DNA from: a virus
Lineage: Duplodnaviria; Heunggongvirae; Uroviricota; Caudoviricetes
Reading direction: 5' to 3' (one strand)
Length of the DNA: 23,762 bases
Virus record (IMG/VR): IMGVR_UViG_2531839524_000007
Every line of letters begins with the position of its first letter. Positions within the stretch are counted from its first letter, which is position 1. Position numbers and translations under genes: made by a program. This document shows positions 1 through 18,690 of this stretch, piece by piece. The notes under the pieces are model-generated. The model was not told the origin of the DNA. It made no database searches and saw nothing but the letters and a program-made list of their open reading frames with translations.

Positions 1-1284
1 TTACTTCTTCGCCTCTGCAACCACTTTGCTACCCACGCCGCGGTTATTGTATTCCCACATGCGGTTGTAGTTAGTGTCATTCAGATTGCGCTGTATTTCG
101 TCGCTATCGTCAACGCTGCCGGTATTACCCGCAAACGGACGATTAGAGATCACCGCATCGCCCCACGGTTTAACCGTGTTAAAACCTTCGTTGATGGCGC
201 TATCACGGATCACCACCTGACCGTTGGTATTGGCATCAACATCCAGCGAGCGGCCCAGTTGCGCCACGCCATCACCGGAAGCATTGAAACGGCTGTTTAC
301 GGCGAGGAAACCGTAATAGATGTTGGACAGCGTAGCCGGTGCAAACACATACGCTTCTTGCTGAGTACGTGAGTTCACCACGCGGAATTCGGTGTTATCG
401 AACACCACTGCGCCGCGACCAGAAACGATATCCACATCCCCTTCAATGTAGCTGTTGGTCACCAGCGTACGCGGCTGACGATTCGTTTCCAGACGGTTCT
501 GCACACCGCTGTTGGTGACAAAGAAGGTGTTCTGACGACCGAGAATGTTAACGTTGTTAATCTGTACCTGGTCACCGTCAGTACGCAGTGCCACCGCCGG
601 ATGGTTACCTGCATCTACGCTATCGCCCAGCGTGTTTTCGATGGTCAGATTTTGCAGTTGCAGGCCATTGTTTTGTGACCAGAAGACCGCAGAACACAGA
701 ACACCGATACTGTCGCTGCGTTTGCGCTGGCAGCTATCGTACATATACCACGCTGGTTTACCTGGCATATATTTGCCGCGCGGGTTGACGTCGTGACGCC
801 AGTCGGCAGGGCTCATGCCCCCATCAAGGGAAAGCCCAATCTTCACATCAATCGGTTTTTCACCTGTACCGTACAGAGTAATTCCACCTGGAGCAGCAGG
901 GACATACACCGTTCCCTGATACTCACCAGGCATCACGGCAATATACTGGCGCTTGTTGGTGCGCTTGATAATTGCCGCATCTACCGCCGCCTGAATCGTG
1001 GTATGCGTTACACCTTGAGTACCCGCCGGGCCGACAACAAAGTCAGGTTGCGCAGGCAGGGTTATCGGGGACGGATTCCACGCTGCAGCACCTGGTGTCA
1101 GGGATGCATAATAGTGTTGAGCATCGAAATTCTGCGCTTCTTTTGCCGACAGAATCGGGCGAGAAGAGGTACCAGGCGCAGTTTGATCAGAAGGACGTTG
1201 ATCGGGTGGTGTTGAGCTACAGGCGGTCAGCGTCACGCCAAAAGCCAATGCCAGCGCCAGACGGGAAACTGAAAATGTGTTCAC
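1..1284 (-). CDS. ybhC: YbhC-type outer-membrane lipoprotein (pectinesterase-fold); host gene flanking attB-lambda
   Basis: 427-aa ORF; N-terminal lipoprotein signal with lipobox LTAC; recognised from memory as E. coli YbhC, which lies beside the lambda attachment site; its stop codon is the first triplet of the window. Confidence 0.9.
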   Translation of the reverse strand: MNTFSVSRLALALAFGVTLTACSSTPPDQRPSDQTAPGTSSRPILSAKEAQNFDAQHYYASLTPGAAAWNPSPITLPAQPDFVVGPAGTQGVTHTTIQAAVDAAIIKRTNKRQYIAVMPGEYQGTVYVPAAPGGITLYGTGEKPIDVKIGLSLDGGMSPADWRHDVNPRGKYMPGKPAWYMYDSCQRKRSDSIGVLCSAVFWSQNNGLQLQNLTIENTLGDSVDAGNHPAVALRTDGDQVQINNVNILGRQNTFFVTNSGVQNRLETNRQPRTLVTNSYIEGDVDIVSGRGAVVFDNTEFRVVNSRTQQEAYVFAPATLSNIYYGFLAVNSRFNASGDGVAQLGRSLDVDANTNGQVVIRDSAINEGFNTVKPWGDAVISNRPFAGNTGSVDDSDEIQRNLNDTNYNRMWEYNNRGVGSKVVAEAKK

Positions 1285-1420: not shown

Positions 1421-2489
1421 ATTTGATTTCAATTTTGTCCCACTCCCTGCCTCTGTCATCACGATACTGTGATGCCATGGTGTCCGACTTATGCCCGAGA
1501 AGATGTTGAGCAAACTTATCGCTTATCTGCTTCTCATAGAGTCTTGCAGACAAACTGCGCAACTCGTGAAAGGTAGGCGGATCCCCTTCGAAGGAAAGAC
1601 CTGATGCTTTTCGTGCGCGCATAAAATACCTTGATACTGTGCCGGATGAAAGCGGTTCGCGACGAGTAGATGCAATTATGGTTTCTCCGCCAAGAATCTC
1701 TTTGCATTTATCAAGTGTTTCCTTCATTGATATTCCGAGAGCATCAACATGCAATGCTGTTGGGATGGCAATTTTTACGCCTGTTTTGCTTTGCTCGACA
1801 TAAAGATATCCATCTACGATATCAGACCACTTCATTTCGCATAAATCACCAACTCGTTGCCCGGTAACAACAGCCAGTTCCATTGCAAGTCTGAGCCAAC
1901 ATGGTGATGATTCTGCTGCTTGATAAATTTTCAGGTATTCGTCAGCCGTAAGTCTTGATCTCCTTACCTCTGATTTTGCTGCGCGAGTGGCAGCGACAGG
2001 GTTTGTTGTTATATGGCCTTCAGCTATTGCCTCTCGGAATGCATCGCTCAGTGTTGATCTGATTAACTTGGCTGACGCCGCCTTGCCCTCGTCTATGTAT
2101 CCATTGAGCATTGCCGCAATTTCTTTTGTGGTGATGTCTTCAAGTGGAGCATCAGGCAGACCCCTCCTTATTGCTTTAATTTTGCTCATGTAATTTATGA
2201 GTGTCTTCTGCTTGATTCCTCTGCTGGCCAGGATTTTTTCGTAGCGATCAAGCCATGAATGTAACGTAACGGAATTATCACTGTTGATTCTCGCTGTCAG
2301 AGGCTTGTGTTTGTGTCCTGAAAATAACTCAATGTTGGCCTGTATGGCTTCAGTGATTGCGATTCGCCTGTCTCTGCCTAATCCAAACTCTTTACCCGTC
2401 CTTGGGTCCCTGTAGCAGTAATATCCATTGTTTCTTATATAAAGGTTAGGGGGTAAATCCCGGCGCTCATGACTTCGCCTTCTTCCCAT
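1419..2489 (-). CDS. int: Lambda-type tyrosine integrase
   Basis: 356-aa ORF, same length as lambda Int; N-terminal arm-binding region MGRRRSHERRDLPPNLYIRNNGYY; catalytic-domain motifs HELRSLSARLY and LLGHKSDTMASQY; directly follows the attL P' arm. Confidence 0.95.
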   Translation of the reverse strand: MGRRRSHERRDLPPNLYIRNNGYYCYRDPRTGKEFGLGRDRRIAITEAIQANIELFSGHKHKPLTARINSDNSVTLHSWLDRYEKILASRGIKQKTLINYMSKIKAIRRGLPDAPLEDITTKEIAAMLNGYIDEGKAASAKLIRSTLSDAFREAIAEGHITTNPVAATRAAKSEVRRSRLTADEYLKIYQAAESSPCWLRLAMELAVVTGQRVGDLCEMKWSDIVDGYLYVEQSKTGVKIAIPTALHVDALGISMKETLDKCKEILGGETIIASTRREPLSSGTVSRYFMRARKASGLSFEGDPPTFHELRSLSARLYEKQISDKFAQHLLGHKSDTMASQYRDDRGREWDKIEIK

Positions 2490-2685
2490 TTCTGATCCTC
2501 TTCAAAAGGCTACCTGTTACTGGTCGATTTAAGTCAACCTTTACCGCTGATTCGTGGAACAGATACTCTCTTCCATCCTTAACCGGAGGAGGGAATATCC
2601 TGCACTCGCGTACCCATCGACGAACTGTTTCAAGGCTTCTTGGGCGTCGCTGGCGTGCGTTCCACTCCTGAAGTGTCAAGTACAT
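2467..2685 (-). CDS. xis: Excisionase
   Basis: 72-aa ORF MYLTLQEWNARQRRPRSLETVRRWV... recognised as lambda Xis; overlaps the int start by 23 nt as in lambda. Confidence 0.93.
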   Translation of the reverse strand: MYLTLQEWNARQRRPRSLETVRRWVRECRIFPPPVKDGREYLFHESAVKVDLNRPVTGSLLKRIRNGKKAKS

Positions 2686-2712
2686 CGCAAAGTCTCCGCA
2701 ATTACACGCAAG

Positions 2713-2733
2713 AAAAAACCGCCATCAGGCGGC
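2713..2733 (-). terminator. Candidate intrinsic terminator between orf55 and xis (minus strand)
   Basis: Minus-strand reading gccgcc-tgat-ggcggc hairpin followed by TTTTTT; the stop codon of orf55 lies in the loop. Confidence 0.5.
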
Positions 2734-2892
2734 TTGGTGTTCTTTCAGTTCTTCAATTCGAATATTGGTTACGTCTGCATGTGCTATCTGCGCCCACAGC
2801 ATCCAGTGGTCATAGCAGTCGCTGATGTTCTCGGCTTCGATAACTCTGTTGAATGGTTCTCCATTCCATTCACCTGTGACTCGGAAGTGCAT
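2725..2892 (-). CDS. Small hypothetical protein, 55 aa, equivalent to the lambda ORF immediately left of xis
   Basis: Hand-translated ATG..TGA ORF MHFRVTGEWNGEPFNRVIEAENISDCYDHWMLWAQIAHADVTNIRIEELKEHQAA; below the 60-aa cutoff of the ORF track; size and spacing relative to xis match lambda. Confidence 0.6.
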   Translation of the reverse strand: MHFRVTGEWNGEPFNRVIEAENISDCYDHWMLWAQIAHADVTNIRIEELKEHQAA

Positions 2893-3206
2893 TTATCATC
2901 TCCATAAAACAAACCCCGCCGTAGCGAGTTCAGATAAAAGAAATCCTCGTCAGTGCGAGGATGCTGTTCATTGCTGCTATACACTTTTTTGCTCTCAACG
3001 TAAGCGGTAGCCCATTCTGTTGGGTTGGTGCAGTTGCTTTTAGGAAATGCTATTTACCCCTTAAATGTCGGCTGAAAGAGCTAAAATCCATGCAAAAAAT
3101 TTACGCAATTTTGTGTATTATTGTGCAGTAAGTAATGAGCTATTTTCTGCGCAAAAAATGGATGGTAAATTTGTCCGGGTCAGGAAAAATTTTATGGGCG
3201 CTAAAC

Positions 3207-3737
3207 ATGAAAAAAGATTCGTATCCTTATTTGATTTGCATGACAGTTTCAGGGCTGATCTTTATTTTCCTTTTCTTCTGGTGGCGGGCAGATATCTACA
3301 GGGTCACGTTTCTTAATCAGAGTATATCCCACTATTACATTCTGTTTAGCATGGGAATAGCTTTTCTGTTATCTCTGTTTTGGGTTAAGAAGGGGATAGT
3401 AAAACAAAGAGGCTGGAAGAGTCTGTCAGCATACCTTAAGGTTTATGCAGGGATGTGCATATTTGCAGGATTTTTTCTGATTATACCCCTTACGACACTA
3501 ACTTATTTTTTGCCTGGAGAGACATCGTCTTATGTTGCACCGTATCGGTATACTTCCGGTAGTTCAAAAAGTTGTTCTGGAGCTGAGGTGGATGACCCCG
3601 ATCTACATGAGAATATTCGCATTTGCTATCCGTATGGCAATTATGAGTACGATAATATTATCTATGTTGAAAAGAAAATTAATATATTAGGTGCGGTAGT
3701 GACATATGCACAGACCGCGCGTGATGATACTGAATGA
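3207..3737 (+). CDS. Accessory integral membrane protein (about 3 predicted TM helices plus about 70-aa soluble C-terminal domain); function unknown
   Basis: ORF 3135..3737 on the track; likely start at ATG 3207 (MKKDSYPYLI...) or further upstream; hydrophobic segments LICMTVSGLIFIFLFFWW, YYILFSMGIAFLLSLFWV, YAGMCIFAGFFLIIPLTTLTYFL; visibly AT-rich; opposite strand to the surrounding early-left genes. Confidence 0.6.
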   Translation: MKKDSYPYLICMTVSGLIFIFLFFWWRADIYRVTFLNQSISHYYILFSMGIAFLLSLFWVKKGIVKQRGWKSLSAYLKVYAGMCIFAGFFLIIPLTTLTYFLPGETSSYVAPYRYTSGSSKSCSGAEVDDPDLHENIRICYPYGNYEYDNIIYVEKKINILGAVVTYAQTARDDTE

Positions 3738-3771
3738 TATAGTATATAGCGGGCAAGTTTTAGTTAATTTA

Positions 3772-3795
3772 TCGAGGTAATATAATTTACCTCGA
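3772..3795 (+). terminator. Perfect 9-bp-stem hairpin (tcgaggtaa-tataat-ttacctcga) downstream of the membrane-protein gene; possible bidirectional terminator
   Basis: Inverted repeat read directly; followed by a T-rich stretch on the plus strand; sits between convergent genes. Confidence 0.45.
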
Positions 3796-3947
3796 CTCGT
3801 TTGTTCTGGTATTAATATTTCGCTTTACGACCGATTTTTATCTGATGATATCATGCGGTTTTCATATACTGACTTACTGTCTTTTCTCCGTTAGCGATTT
3901 TCTCCTGCTCAGCGATGATTTTATCTTTGGCTTCTAGTTAATTTCGC

Positions 3948-4169
3948 TCACTTCGAACCTCTCTGTTTACTGATAAGCTCCAGATCCTCCTGGCAACTTG
4001 CACAAGTCCGACAACCCTGAACGACCAGGCGTCTTCGTTCATCTATCGGATCGCCACACTCACAACAATGAGTGGCAGATATAGCCTGGTGGTTCAGGCG
4101 GCGCATTTTTATTGCTGTGTTGCGCTGTAATTCTTCAATTTCTGATGCTGAATCAATGATGTCTGCCAT
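3948..4169 (-). CDS. TraR/DksA-family C4 zinc-finger protein
   Basis: 73-aa ORF with CCECGDPIDERRR...CRTCASCQ four-cysteine motif typical of phage TraR/DksA-like proteins. Confidence 0.75.
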   Translation of the reverse strand: MADIIDSASEIEELQRNTAIKMRRLNHQAISATHCCECGDPIDERRRLVVQGCRTCASCQEDLELISKQRGSK

Positions 4170-4221
4170 CTTCCATTAATCCCTGAATTGTTGGTTAATA
4201 CGCTTGAGGGTGAATGCGAAT

Positions 4222-4246
4222 AATAAAAAAGGAGCCTGTAGCTCCC
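4222..4246 (-). terminator. Candidate intrinsic terminator inside the early-left operon (minus strand)
   Basis: Minus-strand hairpin ggagc-tacag-gctcc followed by TTTTTT. Confidence 0.5.
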
Positions 4247-4267
4247 TGATGATTTTGCTTTTCATGT

Positions 4268-4579
4268 TCATCGTTCCTTAAAGACGCCGTTTAACATGCC
4301 GATTGCCAGGCTTAAATGAGTCGGTGTGAATCCCATCAGCGTTACCGTTTCGCGGTGCTTCTTCAGTACGCTACGGCAAATGTCATCGACGTTTTTATCC
4401 GGAAACTGCTGTCTGGCTTTTTTGATTTCAGAATTAGCCTGACGGGCAATGCTGCGAAGGGCGTTTTCCTGCTGAGGTGTCATTGAACAAGTCCCATGTC
4501 GGCAAGCATAAGCACACAGAATATGAAGCCCGCTGCCAGAAAAATGCATTCCGTGGTTGTCATACCTGGTCTCTCTCAT
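4268..4579 (-). CDS. Hypothetical early-left protein at the lambda orf61 position
   Basis: 103-aa ORF overlapping the next gene by 20 nt, the same overlap as lambda orf61/orf63; real start may be internal (MTPQQENALRS...). Confidence 0.5.
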   Translation of the reverse strand: MRETRYDNHGMHFSGSGLHILCAYACRHGTCSMTPQQENALRSIARQANSEIKKARQQFPDKNVDDICRSVLKKHRETVTLMGFTPTHLSLAIGMLNGVFKER

Positions 4580-4751
4580 CTGCTTCTGCTTTCGCCACCA
4601 TCATTTCCAGCTTTTGTGAAAGGGATGCGGCTAACGTATGAAATTCTTCGTCTGTTTCTACTGGTATTGGCACAAACCTGACTCCAATTTGAGCGAGGCT
4701 ATGTGCCATCTCGATACTCGTTCTTAACTTAACGGGAGATGCTTTGTGCAT
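4560..4751 (-). CDS. Lambda orf63-like small protein
   Basis: 63-aa ORF; length and 28-nt overlap with the following gene match lambda orf63/orf60a. Confidence 0.7.
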   Translation of the reverse strand: MHKASPVKLRTSIEMAHSLAQIGVRFVPIPVETDEEFHTLAASLSQKLEMMVAKAEADERDQV

Positions 4752-4906
4752 ACAGCTCCCCGTTTATTATTTATCTCCTCAGCCAGCCGCTGTGCTTTCA
4801 GGGGATTTCGGATAACAGAAAGGCCGGGAAATACCCAGCCTCGCTTCGTAACGGAGTAGACGAAAGTGATCGTGCCTACGCGGATATTATCGTGAGGATG
4901 TTTCAT
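4724..4906 (-). CDS. Lambda orf60a-like small protein
   Basis: ORF 4724..4912 on the track; start at the second Met (4906) gives 60 aa and the 4-nt overlap with exo seen in lambda. Confidence 0.7.
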
Positions 4907-5583
4907 CGCCATTGCTCCCCAAATACAAAACCAATTTCAGCCAGTGCCTCGTCCATTTTTTCGATGAACTCCGGCACCATCTCGTCAAAACTCGCCATGT
5001 AATTTTCATCCCGCTCAACCACGACATAATGCAGGCCTTCACGCTTCATTCGTGGGTCATAGTTGGCAAAGTACCAGGCATCTTTTCGCGTCACCCACAT
5101 GCTGTACTGCACCTGGGCCATGTAAGCTGACTTTATGGCCTCGAAACCACCGAGCCGGAATTTCATGAAATCCCGGGAGGTAAACGGGCATTTCAGTTCA
5201 AGGCCGTTGCCGTCACTGCATAAACCATCGGGAGAGCAGGCGGTGCGCATACTTTCGTCGCGATAGATGATCGGGGATTCAGTAACATTCACGCCGGAAG
5301 TAAACTCAAACAGGGCTCTGGCGTCGTTCTCGTACTGTTTTCCCCAGGCCAGCGCCTTAGCATTAACTTCCGGAGCCACACCGGTGCAAACCTCAGCCAG
5401 CAGGGTGTGGAAGTAGGACATTTTCATGTCAGGCCACTTCTTTCCTGAGCGGGGCTTTGCTATCACGTTGTGAACTTCTGAAGCGGTGATGACGCCGAGC
5501 CGTAATTTGTGCCATGCATCATCCCCCTGTTCGACAGCTCTCACGTCGATCCCGGTACGCTGCAGGATAATGTCCGGTGTCAT
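4903..5583 (-). CDS. exo: Lambda exonuclease (Red-alpha)
   Basis: 226-aa [40 protein letters not shown]... recognised as lambda Exo; same length. Confidence 0.95.
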
Positions 5584-6365
5584 GCTGCCACCTTCTGCTC
5601 AGTGGCTTTCTGTTTCAGGAATCCAAGAGCTTTCACTGCTTCGGCCTGTGTCAGTTCTGACGATGCGCGAATGTCGCGGCGAAATATCTGGGAACAGAGC
5701 GGCAATAAGTCGTCATCCCATGTTTTATCCAGGGCGATCAGCAGAGTGTTAATCTCCTGCATGGTTTCATCGTTAACCGGAGTGATGTCGCGTTCCGGCT
5801 GACGTTCTGCAGTGTATGCAGTATTTTCGACAATGCGCTCGGCTTCATCCTTGTCATAGATACCAGCAAATCCGAAGGCCAGACGGGCACACTGAATCAT
5901 GGCTTTATGCCGTAACATCCGTTTGGGATGCGACTGCCACGGCCCCGTAATTTCTCTGCCTTCGCGAGTTTTGAATGGTTCGCGGCGGCATTCATCCATC
6001 CATTCGGTAACGCAGATCGGATGATTACGGTCCTTGCGGTAAATCCGGCATGTACAGGATTCATTGTCCTGCTCAAAGTCCATGCCATCAAACTGCTGGT
6101 TTTCATTGATGATGCGGGACCAGCCATCAACGCCCACCACCGGAACGATGCCGTTCTGCTTATCAGGGAAGGCGTAAATTTCTTTCGTCCACGGATTAAG
6201 GCCGTACTGGTTGGCGACGATCAACAATGCGATGAACTGCGCATCGCTGGCATCACCTTTAAATGCCGTCTGGCGAAGAGGGGTGATCAGTTCCTGTGGG
6301 TCGACAGAATCCATGCCGACACGTTCAGCCAGCTTCCCTGCCAGCGTTGCGAGTGCTGTACTCAT
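5580..6365 (-). CDS. bet: Single-strand annealing protein Bet (Red-beta)
   Basis: 261-aa [41 protein letters not shown]... recognised as lambda Bet; 4-nt overlap with exo. Confidence 0.95.
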
Positions 6366-6370
6366 CCGTT

Positions 6371-6667
6371 TTATACCTCTGAATCAATATCAACCTGGTG
6401 GCGGGCAATAGTTTCAACCATGTACCGTATGTGTTCTGCCATGCGTTCCTGAAACTCAACATCGTCATCAAACGCACGGGTAATGGCTTTTTTGCTGGCC
6501 CCGTGGCGTTGCAAATGATCGATGCATAGCGATTCAAACAGGTGCTGGGGCAGGCCTTTTTCCATGTCGTCTGCCAGTTCTGCCTCTTTCTCTTCACGGG
6601 CGATCTGCTGGTAGTGACGCGCCCAGCTCTGAGCCTCAAGACGATCCTGAATGTAATAAGCGTTCAT
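6371..6667 (-). CDS. gam: Gam (RecBCD inhibitor), short form
   Basis: 98-aa [63 protein letters not shown]... recognised as lambda GamS; the upstream in-frame extension is closed by a stop codon. Confidence 0.9.
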
Positions 6668-6743: not shown

Positions 6744-6950
6744 TTAGTGATTCAGGCCGTTACCGCGTCCGTCGAGAAAAACTTCCACGAGCAAATCACG
6801 GGTATAAGTGCGCTCGATGCCGCGATGCAGATAAAGCCGTCCGCGTAAATTAGCTGATGCAGTCCAGGTACCATCTTTGTGTTTGACCAGCATTCCTGGC
6901 ATGACCGCACCTCGATTAACGGTCTGCGTTCCGTAATGTTGATGAACCAT
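6744..6950 (-). CDS. Kil-position small protein (possible host cell-division inhibitor); start uncertain
   Basis: ORF 6744..7034 on the track; internal ATG at 6950 is preceded by AGGAG (MVHQHYGTQTVNRGAV...), another at 6902 by GAGGTG; ORF ends where lambda kil ends relative to gam; product assigned by position only. Confidence 0.4.
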   Translation of the reverse strand: MVHQHYGTQTVNRGAVMPGMLVKHKDGTWTASANLRGRLYLHRGIERTYTRDLLVEVFLDGRGNGLNH

Positions 6951-7224
6951 AAAAACTCCTGCCCGTAAGCTGGGCTGCTGAACATATAAAGACTTCTGCG
7001 CGTATTCAGGCGGTGGATGGCCGCCGGTTGTCATAACTAAGCCGCCTCGTTGAAGCGACTAAGGTATGAAATGTTGAGTTAATTTCAGCTGGTCACACCG
7101 ACGTTCACGCGTCCGTTTCACCCCTCGCACTCCCCGAAGCCTGCTGAAATTCAAACTGCGGATCTAAGCGGTCATCGCAACGGTGAATCAGGTAGTTGCC
7201 GTATCGTTGTGTTGTTGCGATGAA

Positions 7225-8339: not shown

Positions 8340-8570
8340 ATGAACCCAGCTATCAAAACAGCGATCAATATCGTTGGTTCACAAAAGAAACTGGGCGCTG
8401 CTTGCGAAGTTTCACAGCAGGCCGTCTATAAGTGGCTTCACAACAAAGCAAAGGTATCCCCTGAACATGTCGGCAGCATTGTTACGGCTACTGGTGGAGT
8501 AGTGAAGGCATACCAGATTCGCCCGGATCTTCCGAAGTTGTTTCCACACACCGAAAAGAACGCAGCTTAA
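8340..8570 (+). CDS. Cro-like HTH regulator
   Basis: 76-aa ORF with HTH QKKLGAACEVSQQAVYKWL; GGAGG Shine-Dalgarno; divergent from the repressor. Confidence 0.8.
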   Translation: MNPAIKTAINIVGSQKKLGAACEVSQQAVYKWLHNKAKVSPEHVGSIVTATGGVVKAYQIRPDLPKLFPHTEKNAA

Positions 8571-8639: not shown

Positions 8640-9179
8640 ATGCAACCACTTACATACCAACAGACTAGCGGATTTAGCCCGACTGCGGTGATAAATCGTT
8701 CTCAAACAAAACAGGTGCCAGGCCACGAAAAAATCCGTGATGCCGTCCGCGCCTGGTCGGCTGTAGATAATCAGGATGTCGTTGCCACACTCATTGTGAA
8801 TGAGTATCGGGAGCAGGGCGGCGGCACCATCGATTTCCCTGATGATGTCAGCCGTGCACGCCAGAAGCTGTTCCGCTTCCTCGATAACAAATTCGATTCT
8901 GAAAAATACCGAAATAATGTGCGTGAACTGACCCCGGCAATTCTGGCGGTACTACCGCTGGAATATCGCGGTTACCTGGTTGAGCAGGATAGCTTCATGG
9001 CTAGGTTGGCTGAAATGGAAAAGGAACTCAGTGAGGCAAAACAGGCTGTCATTCTCAACGCACCACGCCACCAGAAACTGAAGGAAATTAGTGAAGGTAT
9101 TGTGTCGATGTTTCGTGTGGACCCAGATCTGGCTGGTCCATTGATGGCGATGGTTACTACCATGCTGGGGGCGATATGA
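8640..9179 (+). CDS. cII-position regulatory protein, possibly YdaT-family
   Basis: 179-aa ORF with AAGGAG Shine-Dalgarno directly after cro; larger than lambda CII; family assignment is a recollection, not verified. Confidence 0.5.
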   Translation: MQPLTYQQTSGFSPTAVINRSQTKQVPGHEKIRDAVRAWSAVDNQDVVATLIVNEYREQGGGTIDFPDDVSRARQKLFRFLDNKFDSEKYRNNVRELTPAILAVLPLEYRGYLVEQDSFMARLAEMEKELSEAKQAVILNAPRHQKLKEISEGIVSMFRVDPDLAGPLMAMVTTMLGAI

Positions 9180-11847: not shown

Positions 11848-13374
11848 ATGAAAAAAGCCATAGCATATATGCGATTTTCATCACCAGGTCAGATGTCTGG
11901 TGATTCATTAAACCGCCAGAGAAGGCTTATTACTGAATGGCTAAAGGTAAATAGTGATTATTACCTTGATACCGTAACGTATGAAGATTTGGGGTTAAGC
12001 GCATTCAATGGAAAGCATGCACAATCAGGAGCTTTTTCGGAATTTTTAGATGCTATAGAACATGGTTATATATTGCCAGGGACTACATTGTTAGTTGAAA
12101 GTCTGGACAGACTTTCAAGAGAAAAAGTCGGTGAAGCGATTGAGCGTCTGAAATTGATTTTGAATCACGGTATTGATGTTATAACTCTTTGCGATAATAC
12201 AGTCTATAATATTGACTCATTGAATGAGCCATATTCATTAATAAAAGCCATACTTATAGCACAAAGGGCAAATGAAGAAAGCGAGATAAAGTCAAGTCGG
12301 GTTAAATTATCATGGAAGAAAAAACGGCAGGATGCACTGGAGTCAGGCACGATTATGACGGCGTCTTGTCCGAGATGGCTCTCATTGGATGACAAAAGAA
12401 CGGCTTTTGTTCCAGACCCCGACAGGGTGAAAACTATTGAGCTAATTTTTAAACTCAGGATGGAAAGGCGCTCATTGAATGCAATAGCCAAGTATTTAAA
12501 TGATCATGCTGTAAAGAATTTCTCAGGAAAAGAAAGTGCATGGGGACCTTCTGTAATTGAAAAATTATTAGCGAATAAAGCTCTGATAGGTATATGCGTA
12601 CCTTCATATCGTGCAAGAGGTAAAGGAATAAGTGAAATCGCTGGCTATTATCCCAGAGTCATATCAGATGATTTGTTTTACGCTGTGCAGGAAATTCGGT
12701 TGGCACCTTTTGGTATTAGCAATAGTAGCAAAAATCCTATGTTGATAAATCTACTTCGAACAGTTATGAAGTGCGAGGCTTGTGGTAATACCATGATTGT
12801 TCATGCGATATCTGGAAGTTTGCATGGCTATTATGTTTGTCCGATGAGAAGACTGCATCGATGTGACAGGCCATCAATAAAGAGAGATTTGGTTGATTAT
12901 AATATCATTAATGAGTTGCTTTTTAATTGTAGTAAAATCCAACCAGTTGAAAACAAGAAAGATGCTAATGAAACTTTAGAGTTGAAAATTATTGAGCTCC
13001 AGATGAAAATTAATAATTTAATTGCTGCATTATCTGTTGCGCCTGAAGTTACCGCTATAGCAGAAAAAATCAGAGTATTAGATAAGGAATTACGAAGGGC
13101 TTCTGTATCATTAAAAACTTTGAAGAGTAAAGCGGTGAGTTCACTTGGTGATTTTCATGCTATTGACTTAACCAGTAAAAATGGGCGAGAGCTATGTCGT
13201 ACACTTGCCTATAAAACATTCGAAAAAATCATAATCAATACAGATAATAAAACCTGTGATATCTATTTTATGAATGGCATTGTTTTTAAACACTATCCTT
13301 TAATGAAAACAATATCTGCCCAGCAGGCGATAAGTACTCTCAAATATATGGTTGATGGTGAGGTTTATTTTTGA
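11848..13374 (+). CDS. ybcK: Large serine recombinase, YbcK-like
   Basis: 508-aa ORF; N-terminal resolvase-type catalytic domain (AIAYMRFSSPGQ, VESLDRLSR), recombinase domain, Cys cluster CEACGN...CPMRRLHRC, C-terminal coiled-coil-like region; low GC; recalled as the DLP12 ybcK family. Confidence 0.85.
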   Translation: MKKAIAYMRFSSPGQMSGDSLNRQRRLITEWLKVNSDYYLDTVTYEDLGLSAFNGKHAQSGAFSEFLDAIEHGYILPGTTLLVESLDRLSREKVGEAIERLKLILNHGIDVITLCDNTVYNIDSLNEPYSLIKAILIAQRANEESEIKSSRVKLSWKKKRQDALESGTIMTASCPRWLSLDDKRTAFVPDPDRVKTIELIFKLRMERRSLNAIAKYLNDHAVKNFSGKESAWGPSVIEKLLANKALIGICVPSYRARGKGISEIAGYYPRVISDDLFYAVQEIRLAPFGISNSSKNPMLINLLRTVMKCEACGNTMIVHAISGSLHGYYVCPMRRLHRCDRPSIKRDLVDYNIINELLFNCSKIQPVENKKDANETLELKIIELQMKINNLIAALSVAPEVTAIAEKIRVLDKELRRASVSLKTLKSKAVSSLGDFHAIDLTSKNGRELCRTLAYKTFEKIIINTDNKTCDIYFMNGIVFKHYPLMKTISAQQAISTLKYMVDGEVYF

Positions 13375-17020: not shown

Positions 17021-18103
17021 TTAGAACTGGTAAACCATACCTACAGCAACGATATCATCGGTAGCAACGCCAGATGCTTTCGTGAAATCGCTCTTATCAA
17101 TCAGGTTGATTTTGTAATCAACAAAAGTGGACATATTTTTGTTGAAGTAATAGGTTGCACCTACATCAATATATTCAACCAGGTCCTGATCACCCCACGC
17201 ACCCAAGTCTTTTCCTTTAGATTGCAGGTAAGCAACGGACGGACGCAGACCGAAGTCGAACTGATATTGTGCAACTACTTCGAAGTTTTGTGCTTTGTTG
17301 GCAATATGGTTATTACCAAAAACAGTCATGTTCTGGGTTTCAGAATAGGTGGTAGCCAGATAGATGTTGTTCGCATCATATTTCAGACCAGCTGCCCATA
17401 CTTCAGCATTTTGACCAGATGCATTCAGGCTGTTGTTACCGTAGATAACCTGATTATTAGTGCGGTCAGATTTAGCATAGGTTGCACCTACACCGAATCC
17501 TTCATACTCATAAGTAGTGGAGAAACCGAAACCATCCCCATTAGCTTCAGTTACGTCAGTGCGGTCATTTTTACCCTGATACTGAGCAGCAAAGTTCAGA
17601 CCATCAACCAGACCAAAGAAGTCATTGTTACGATAAGTTGCAACACCTGTGGTGCGACCAGTCATGAATACATCTGTTTGGGTCCAGGTATCGCCACCGA
17701 ATTCTGGCAGAACGTCGGTCCATGCACCAATATCGTATGCTACACCGTAGTTACGGCCATAATCGATGGAGCCGTAGTCACCGAATTTCAGGCCAGCGAA
17801 GGCAAGACGGGTTTTATCTTTGGAGGAACCTTGAGATTCAGCGCGGTTGCCTTTGAATTCATATTCCCACTGACCGAAACCAGTCAGTTGATCGTTGATT
17901 TGGGTTTCACCTTTGAAGCCAAGACGGGCATAAGTAGTATCACCATCATCTGCATCATTAGAGGAGAAGTAGTGCTTAGCATTAACTTTCCCGTACAGAT
18001 CCAGCTTGTTACTGTCTTTATTATAAATTTCAGCTGCCTGAGCAGACATCGCCATCAGTACTGATGCAGCTACAGCAGAAATTGCCACTGTTAATTTTTT
18101 CAT
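17021..18103 (-). CDS. nmpC: General-diffusion porin, NmpC/OmpD-like, apparently intact
   Basis: ORF 17021..18163 on the track; start at [23 protein letters not shown] (signal peptide) at 18103; mature sequence [23 protein letters not shown]... and C-terminal ...GMVYQF typical of OmpC/OmpF-family porins; no interruption seen. Confidence 0.9.
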
Positions 18104-18690
18104 CGTGAGCCCTTTTTTTGAACTATTATTAAAAAATGATGTCACTGCGCGATAAATATTCATCTAATCAATGTGATTATTTCAAGATGTAAGTTTTGGT
18201 TTCTCATTTGATTTGTGAAGTAGATCTCTATTTTTATCTGAACTTTTTCTATCGAATCCTATTCATGGCTCTTGGCTGAATAAAAATAAATCTATTAGCC
18301 AATTTATATTAATGGCTGTTATTTATAAGTGCTCTATAATTTGAAGGTTCAATTTAAACCAGCTAAAAATAACGCTGGAAATTATTTGTTGGTTATTTGT
18401 TGAGATTTGCTTATGTATTTGTAGTGGTGTTTTCAATACTCGGTAGCATTCTCGCAAATATCATTTAGTGGTTTACGTACGTAAAAAATTGGTTATGCTG
18501 TTAAGAGTGGTTACTTCGTCACACAGCTTAAACCCGCCGTCGAGCGGGTTTTTCCATTTTTTGAGTCTCGATATTAGCTGATAACCCAATACCTGAGTTA
18601 TTCACTGACTCCGAGTCTGTTACGTTTCTGCTTTTTTGCGATACGTTGTATTCCCTCAATTTACACCCGCTTTGTCTGCGAGGTGGGGTT

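Follow-up and report, generated by a model that had tools for sequence, protein, structure and literature searches.

The stretch of DNA analysed here (the window; 23,762 nucleotides (nt) of IMG/VR virus record IMGVR_UViG_2531839524_000007, assigned to the Caudoviricetes) is a lambdoid prophage integrated beside ybhC and carries, between xis and exo, a plus-strand gene for a conserved membrane protein of 176 amino acids (aa). That this gene and its promoter region constitute a single-gene accessory cassette of the prophage, or "moron," is well supported. As to what the cassette does, we tentatively favor, at somewhat short of an even chance, a prophage-expressed envelope protein that would exclude superinfecting phages at the stage of DNA entry, in the manner of P22 SieA or HK97 gp15, to which the protein is unrelated.

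The cassette differs from its surroundings in strand and composition. The maximal open reading frame (ORF), at positions 3135–3737, is the sole plus-strand gene in the early-left stretch between xis and exo, and the GC content is 0.34–0.41 over positions 3001–3900 compared with 0.45–0.55 in both flanks. The first-pass annotation of this DNA had singled out an AT-rich plus-strand gene alone among minus-strand early-left genes, and the ORF list, the annotation of phage 434 and the dip in GC content all agree with it. The same annotation had placed the gene in the slot of ea8.5 and ea22, which is right, judging from the synteny with orf63 and orf60a and from the lambda map.

The site is empty in the close lambdoid relative PhiR26_1, where homology to the window resumes at position 3985, and other close relatives likewise lack the gene. 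Putative promoter and coding sequence (CDS) recur as a single block in P2-like prophages, an unrelated phage type: the cassette shares 79% DNA identity with the E. coli P2-like prophage copy L017 (blastn), and this homology takes in ∼114 nt upstream together with the CDS and ends at the stop codon. The unit common to the window and the P2-like copy (3093–3735) defines the cassette, and the left coordinate of 2985 first proposed for it has no meaning. Downstream, the hairpin at 3772–3795, initially described as perfect and found to be so, has a stem of 9 bp and a loop of 6 nt, with CTCGTTTGTT behind it. Its score is that of a terminator-like site, of which the region has eight where 1.2 are expected; folding of positions 3738–3815 against shuffled sequences gives z = −2.9, and in another allele one stem position changes from A-T to G-T with pairing retained. 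The boundary on the left is the hairpin t-L4, named in the 1990s phage 434 record M60848, from which its coordinates were mapped onto the window. The earlier designation of the gene as a moron is thus sustained by deviant GC content, opposite strand, the terminator-like hairpin, a conserved promoter-like element and the empty site in PhiR26_1.

The first-pass annotation had named superinfection exclusion or abortive infection as candidate roles, a proposal that the distribution of homologues in part strengthens. Six divergent homologues (49–78% identity to the window protein) share one location, between the portal gene gpQ and the replication gene gpA of P2-like prophages; their sources are E. 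coli, Salmonella (two types), Klebsiella michiganensis, Enterobacter hormaechei and a metagenome. In P2 this is where old and tin lie, and the site has been shown to be a hotspot for anti-phage systems (PMC9122126). The copy in the window does not itself lie at gpA–gpQ but in the xis–exo interval of a lambdoid prophage. Among the cargo of the hotspot, Table S5B of Rousset et al. (2022) lists a "System #4" with no Pfam assignment, the remark "3 TM" and 470 occurrences (PMC9122126), and the System #4 protein aligns with the window protein at 51% identity over 168 aa (E 2e-56). In K. michiganensis, the gpQ–gpA interval of the P2-like prophage (L021-L023, positions 2281–5623) encodes, besides the homologue, an AAA_16-type ATPase of 790 aa and a protein of 279 aa, a pair that looks like a candidate defense system.

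Copies close to that of the window are old acquaintances under other labels. The DNA of the region is 98.5–99.6% identical to phages 434, mEp332 and 2B8, the only three distinct phages to carry the gene among 50,697 phage records. The sequence had not been recognized at first; the gene is indeed uncharacterized, but the sequence is not new, since it is phage 434 gene CPT_434_36 (UMO75300.1), a "putative membrane protein" in the 2022 genome record, while the 1990s record M60848 lists the start of the ORF as "ORF-22+." Of 5426 complete E. coli genomes, 908 have the cassette, and in every case the annotation is hypothetical. The sequence is therefore already known and often deposited as "hypothetical," and its family has been counted once, as System #4; as far as the searchable literature shows, the family has never been named, modeled or tested. 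In O157:H7 Sakai the gene is ECs_0804, located in the decayed prophage Sp3 and intact even though int and bet are pseudogenes there. A remnant beside torI likewise retains the gene intact, as the sole intact phage-derived gene nearby, among flanking phage genes that are fragmentary. In 434, mEp332, 2B8 and Sakai the same gene occupies this interval, with xis/ORF55 on one side and the TraR-like gene on the other; its annotated start varies between records, with no functional difference. More distant homologues range from 36 to 78% identity to the window protein. Among 5.8 billion proteins searched, 74 relatives turned up, and a profile run against 1.84 billion cluster representatives gave only 61 members.

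The protein has a well-defined predicted architecture. Hydropathy gives three hydrophobic segments and the full-length AlphaFold2 model, with a mean predicted local distance difference test score (pLDDT) of 81, three long helices and a β-domain, in keeping with the three transmembrane (TM) helices claimed initially. The first-pass annotation also foresaw a soluble part, which stands; its "short tail," conversely, does not, since this part is confidently predicted as a folded, five-stranded β-barrel of 74 aa (pLDDT 91.3 when modeled alone). A short strand of the first loop, carrying the conserved sequence IYRVTFL, packs beside the β-domain in the AlphaFold2 model. The loop between TM2 and TM3 has six Lys/Arg and zero Asp/Glu residues, whereas the C-terminal domain has six Lys/Arg versus twelve Asp/Glu. 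According to the positive-inside rule, basic loops are cytoplasmic, and this charge distribution therefore places the N-terminus and the basic loop in the cytoplasm and the first loop and C-terminal domain in the periplasm. An N-in/C-out three-helix inner-membrane protein is thus predicted, with a sole sizeable soluble part that would be periplasmic and a cytoplasmic exposure of only ∼7 N-terminal residues and a ∼19-residue basic loop. Two Cys codons (3573–3575 and 3624–3626) are invariant in the alignment of divergent homologues, the pair is also retained in eight of eight distant relatives inspected, and the invariant motifs of the domain are CSGA.V and I.ICYP.G.Y. Because the two Cys residues are invariant and fall on both strands of one hairpin in the AlphaFold2 model, they probably form a periplasmic disulfide that holds the barrel.

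Taken together, exclusion is proposed because the gene recurs in the accessory slots of two unrelated types of temperate phage, one slot being a proven defense hotspot, because it is retained intact in dead prophages, and because the topology leaves almost nothing in the cytoplasm with which to sense or act; the charge pattern of loop and C-terminal domain and the invariant Cys pair point to action at the envelope stage. The gene would be transcribed from its own promoter, opposite to the repressed pL operon, so that the product would be made in the lysogen. The 176-aa product would insert into the inner membrane by its three TM helices with the N-terminus in the cytoplasm, and its periplasmic module may engage a periplasm-exposed step in the infection by another phage, the target being either the DNA-delivery proteins of the incoming phage or the inner-membrane channel exploited by these proteins. 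Entry of the superinfecting DNA would thereby fail, leaving the lysogen alive.

A defense role could also be played by killing, with the protein as an abortive-infection effector that sits inert in the membrane until a phage trigger causes it to depolarize or permeabilize the inner membrane, so that the cell dies before phage release. Single small membrane proteins serve as suicide effectors in several defense systems (PMC9122126), the hotspot location favors a defense role of this kind too, and a Foldseek search of the viral structure library returned a faint, non-significant match (E 0.31) to an "S-2TM-beta" effector. We nevertheless regard this mechanism as improbable, given that the gene stands alone with no conserved adjacent sensor partner, that the protein has almost no cytoplasmic surface for sensing phage components, that three helices and a compact barrel present no evident pore architecture, and that many genomes, and chromosomes too, keep the gene intact with no neutralizing antitoxin in evidence.

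The reading frame itself requires comment, as RefSeq gives the gene a length of 200 or 176 aa, and the phage 434 record one of 188 aa from a TTG 36 nt upstream. All divergent homologues aligned (42–78% identity) start at Met25 of the 200-aa ORF, that is, at the ATG at 3207, and the E. coli OkiPb01694 allele (96.7% identical) has two stop codons in the 24-codon extension while its 176-aa frame is intact; on these two grounds the gene is taken as 3207–3737, and the 200-aa maximal ORF is rejected as the protein. OkiPb01694 is the one genome in which RefSeq annotates the exact 176-aa form. The extension, missing from all divergent homologues and modeled by AlphaFold2 at a pLDDT of 46–55, is probably untranslated. 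Pairwise ratios of nonsynonymous to synonymous substitution rates (dN/dS) against the P2-like prophage copies are 0.10–0.16 for the whole protein, ∼0.09 for the C-terminal domain where measurable and 0.12–0.23 for the membrane part, a pattern of purifying selection which, on comparative grounds, marks the 176-aa protein as no chance ORF. The idea that the frame is an accident of AT-rich spacer DNA has nothing except the missing annotation in its favor and is refuted by the conservation data, namely homologues down to 36% identity with invariant motifs, the low dN/dS and the confidently predicted fold; its probability is negligible. A second ORF of 56 codons just upstream, which overlaps the t-L4 hairpin and the promoter region, was considered as a partner gene and rejected: it lies mostly outside the block shared with the P2-like copies, and in the OkiPb01694 allele, whose 176-aa gene is intact, a frameshift and several stops disrupt it. 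It has no family match in PADLOC or NCBIfam and, judging from these comparisons, is probably neither a gene nor part of the cassette.

Exclusion is not the only role that the homologues suggest. Those with 36–55% identity stand singly amid housekeeping genes in seven further Enterobacterales genera, on the chromosomes of Enterobacter, Klebsiella, Cedecea, Citrobacter, Pseudescherichia and Serratia and on megaplasmids of Pantoea. The Enterobacter site, beside a GGDEF gene, is syntenic in five species representatives and in E. mori-type loci, and the Citrobacter homologue is near rstB and tus. These chromosomal homologues fit a cellular role at least as well as a phage role. They weigh against exclusion along with several other points. 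The cargo of the P2 hotspot also includes non-defense genes, such as plasmid partition genes and a cytolethal distending toxin (PMC9122126), and the motifs of the protein are missing from both of the tables in Rousset et al. (2022), that of validated and that of additionally tested systems. The gene occurs in both siphovirus-type and myovirus-type prophages and is thus untied to one injection machinery, and the periplasmic domain, on the substitution rates given above, is the more conserved part of the protein, which is unusual for an arms-race interface. Pfam, PADLOC and a SieA profile reveal no homology to any known exclusion or defense protein, and no paper on the gene was found in the searchable literature.

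The main rival to exclusion is an envelope factor unrelated to phage defense that temperate phages have taken up as lysogenic-conversion cargo. It might, for instance, confer orphan immunity to a bacteriocin or contact-dependent toxin that acts on the membrane or in the periplasm, or modulate an inner-membrane transporter or the envelope stress response. We consider this somewhat unlikely. In its favor are the single-gene chromosomal and megaplasmid homologues in the seven genera, the conserved GGDEF-adjacent locus of Enterobacter, the strong conservation of the periplasmic domain and the partly non-defensive cargo of the P2 hotspot. It is opposed by the Pfam result, in which neither colicin immunity nor any other family shows similarity, by the clade nearest the window, which is almost wholly prophage-borne at sites known for exclusion genes, and by the chromosomal loci themselves, which differ between genera as expected for a mobile accessory gene and not for a core function.

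Two of the chromosomal copies adjoin permeases of the glucose-family phosphotransferase system (PTS), a further point that an envelope factor would accommodate. The Serratia homologue directly follows ptsG (L031, positions 4333–6510), and that of Klebsiella sp. R390 (L008/L041) adjoins a bglF-like EIIBCA gene. This adjacency is limited to the two genera, since the other chromosomal loci tested for it or read do not show it, and it is offered as a lead and not as a finding. PTS permeases are inner-membrane DNA-entry factors for some siphophages. It is conceivable, if quite unlikely in all its parts, that the cassette is a mobile one-gene module, promoter included, that moves among chromosomes, P2-like prophages and lambdoid prophages, that its previously unseen, disulfide-stapled periplasmic domain, which resembles an oligonucleotide/oligosaccharide-binding (OB) fold, blocks genome entry of phages, perhaps by acting on a sugar-PTS-type channel that they use for DNA passage, and that it is controlled by a host regulator bound to the phased TTGTGCA repeats upstream of the gene.

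These repeats belong to a putative promoter region that travels with the gene. The putative extended −10 element TGGTAAATT is preceded by a weak −35-like hexamer and would direct a transcript start near 3178, which would leave out the upstream start codons and so agrees with a 176-aa protein. A TGnTAAnTT-type hexamer (TAATTT in the Salmonella copy L018) or TACAAT is present at the same aligned position, with constant spacing to the ATG, in lambdoid, P2-like and Cedecea chromosomal copies; a generic promoter scan of the window did not list the TGGTAAATT element. The centers of the direct repeats precede the predicted transcript start by ∼54 and 64 nt. Their pattern, TTGTG-N5-TTGTGCA, has one match in the window against 0.00 expected and is found upstream of the gene in 13 of 30 loci, being the only site in 11 of those 13. 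Elsewhere it lies near 5895–5921 in L004 and L005, at 5895–5911 in L017 and at 5240–5266 in L029; L005 and L029 each have two overlapping matches, equivalent to three phased TTGTGCA repeats. The repeats accompany both lambdoid and P2-like copies, including one with a protein merely 57–58% identical, and this conserved array is suggestive of control by a host regulator, as would suit an envelope factor with a cellular role.

The annotators of phage 434 labeled the repeat as a CII-binding site (TTGT-N6-TTGT), and this label raises the possibility that the gene serves the life cycle of its own phage, as a CII-activated lysogeny-establishment gene or as a modulator of lysis timing or of the effects of the exo–xis region on the host. 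A CII-activated promoter of the pRE, pI or paQ type has TTGC-N6-TTGC across the −35 region and a cognate CII encoded by the phage, and the window repeat, TTGT-N6-TTGT, does not match it. A CII site is also unlikely because the repeats occur together with the gene in P2-like prophages, because no lambda CII homologue was found in the window with an approximate query, and because a YdaT-domain gene lies at the cII position. P2-like prophages are not known to have a lambda-type CII. The gene does lie within the exo–xis region, whose genes influence lambdoid development (PMC10789677), but most lambdoid phages do without it and dead prophage remnants keep it intact; that it acts in the development of its own phage appears very improbable. 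The YdaT_toxin domain just mentioned is part of a 179-aa protein encoded at 8640–9179 (+), after a Cro-like ORF at 8340–8570.

Searches for a known family returned relatives and a confident fold, as the homology search and structure prediction advised at the outset might, but no match to a characterized family. At E ≤ 1, Pfam gives only a sub-threshold match to DUF6057 and none to SieB, T4 Imm or colicin immunity; NCBIfam gives no match and PADLOC has no matching model. A sequence-profile search of the Protein Data Bank (PDB) found nothing below E 0.45, and the fold search of the viral structure library nothing below E 0.02. PHROG 1416, of unknown function, matches at E 7e-51, over aa 113–200 of the 200-aa ORF only; its profile has 90 positions and corresponds to about the last 88 residues of the protein. 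Shorter forms of 81–128 aa are found in protein clusters; one of 112 aa, in clusters P0075 and P0077 of the P2-type E. coli copy, is recorded for at least 1000 contigs. It begins at an internal start, comprises the third helix and periplasmic domain only and is either a truncated allele or a gene-calling artifact. This form may explain why PHROG 1416 covers the C-terminal part only. Three specific identities were considered and not borne out. A relationship to P22 SieA receives an hhalign probability of 0.3% (family alignment against P22 SieA); the S-x-S-G-A motif of the C-terminal domain, which resembles that of MliC/PliC lysozyme inhibitors, led to an idea that neither Pfam, with no MliC match, nor the fold, which is not a MliC/PliC-like eight-stranded barrel, supports; and Hex of phage 434 is a different gene, located in the immunity region. 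A literature search by accession and locus tag yielded the 434 genome announcement only, which is silent on the gene.

The features of the cassette and its neighbors are collected in Table 1. Among the remaining genes of the window, positions 11848–13374 (+), downstream of the replication genes, encode a 508-aa large serine recombinase (Resolvase, Recombinase and zinc-ribbon domains), which is present although the prophage end already carries a tyrosine integrase. Positions 17021–18163 (−) encode a 380-aa general porin (Porin_1) inside the prophage, annotated as OmpD or outer membrane porin in related phages, and this porin gene is likely another lysogenic-conversion gene.

Table 1. Coordinates of the membrane-protein cassette, its sequence elements and the neighboring genes (window positions unless given as aa).
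Feature	Position	Strand	Basis or remark
Mobile cassette (promoter region and CDS)	3093..3735	+	blastn vs L017
CDS of conserved 176-aa membrane protein	3207..3737, stop included	+	Homologue starts, dN/dS, AlphaFold2
In-frame 24-codon upstream extension of maximal ORF	3135..3206	+	Overlaps promoter and 5′ untranslated region
TM1	aa ∼8–26		Hydropathy, 176-aa numbering
TM2	aa ∼40–60		Hydropathy, 176-aa numbering
TM3	aa ∼84–102		Hydropathy, 176-aa numbering
Periplasmic C-terminal domain, aa 103–176, five-stranded small β-barrel	3513..3734	+	Predicted
Direct repeats TTGTG-N5-TTGTGCA, 10-bp period	3111..3127	+	Candidate regulator-binding site
Weak −35-like TTTTCT	3143–3148	+	17 nt upstream of putative −10
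Putative extended −10 TGGTAAATT	3163..3171	+	Pattern and conservation
Terminator-like hairpin and T-rich tail	3772..3805	+	35 nt past stop codon
Leftward terminator hairpin t-L4, left boundary of cassette	2943..2962	−	M60848 annotation and terminator-like score
56-codon ORF	2961..3131	+	"Putative membrane protein" in phage 434, hypothetical in mEp332
ybhC-like gene	1–1284	−	Window layout
int	1419–2489	−	Window layout
xis	2467–2685	−	Same layout annotated in phage 434
ORF55 (55 codons)	2725–2892	−	Same layout annotated in phage 434
TraR-like zinc-finger gene	3948–4169	−	Same layout annotated in phage 434
ORF	4268–4579	−	Window layout
orf63/orf60a-like ORF	4560–4912	−	exo, bet and gam come after, also −
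Kil-position ORF	6744–7034	−	Window layout

The family is common enough for its role to matter, being found in about one-sixth of complete E. coli genomes, O157:H7 included, in the classic phage 434 and as the fourth commonest cargo of the E. coli P2 hotspot. Should exclusion prove true, the protein would add a new single-protein family to the few injection blockers and would be relevant to the host range of therapeutic phages; should it prove false, the gene would be a clear case of defense-hotspot cargo with another role.

Among the closest known systems, System #4 (3 TM) is homologous and shares the layout of three helices and a C-terminal domain, the single-gene cassette and the accessory slot of a temperate phage. 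It differs in belonging to another phage family and another slot (gpA–gpQ), and it has been catalogued outside the tables of tested systems in that paper. P22 SieA offers the analogy for the proposed mechanism, being a small inner-membrane protein that the prophage expresses from a stand-alone gene opposing the neighboring operon and that blocks DNA injection (PMC10883804). Its sequence, however, is unrelated, and SieA acts on P22-like phages only. HK97 gp15 and T4 Imm and Sp, which stop DNA entry, are small phage proteins anchored in the membrane, with their site of action at the periplasm and inner membrane; no Pfam, PHROG or PADLOC link connects them to the present protein, which instead combines three helices with an OB-like barrel. 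For that periplasmic domain the best structural matches are small OB-like β-barrels, namely the DUF1093 protein 3npp and cold-shock domains.

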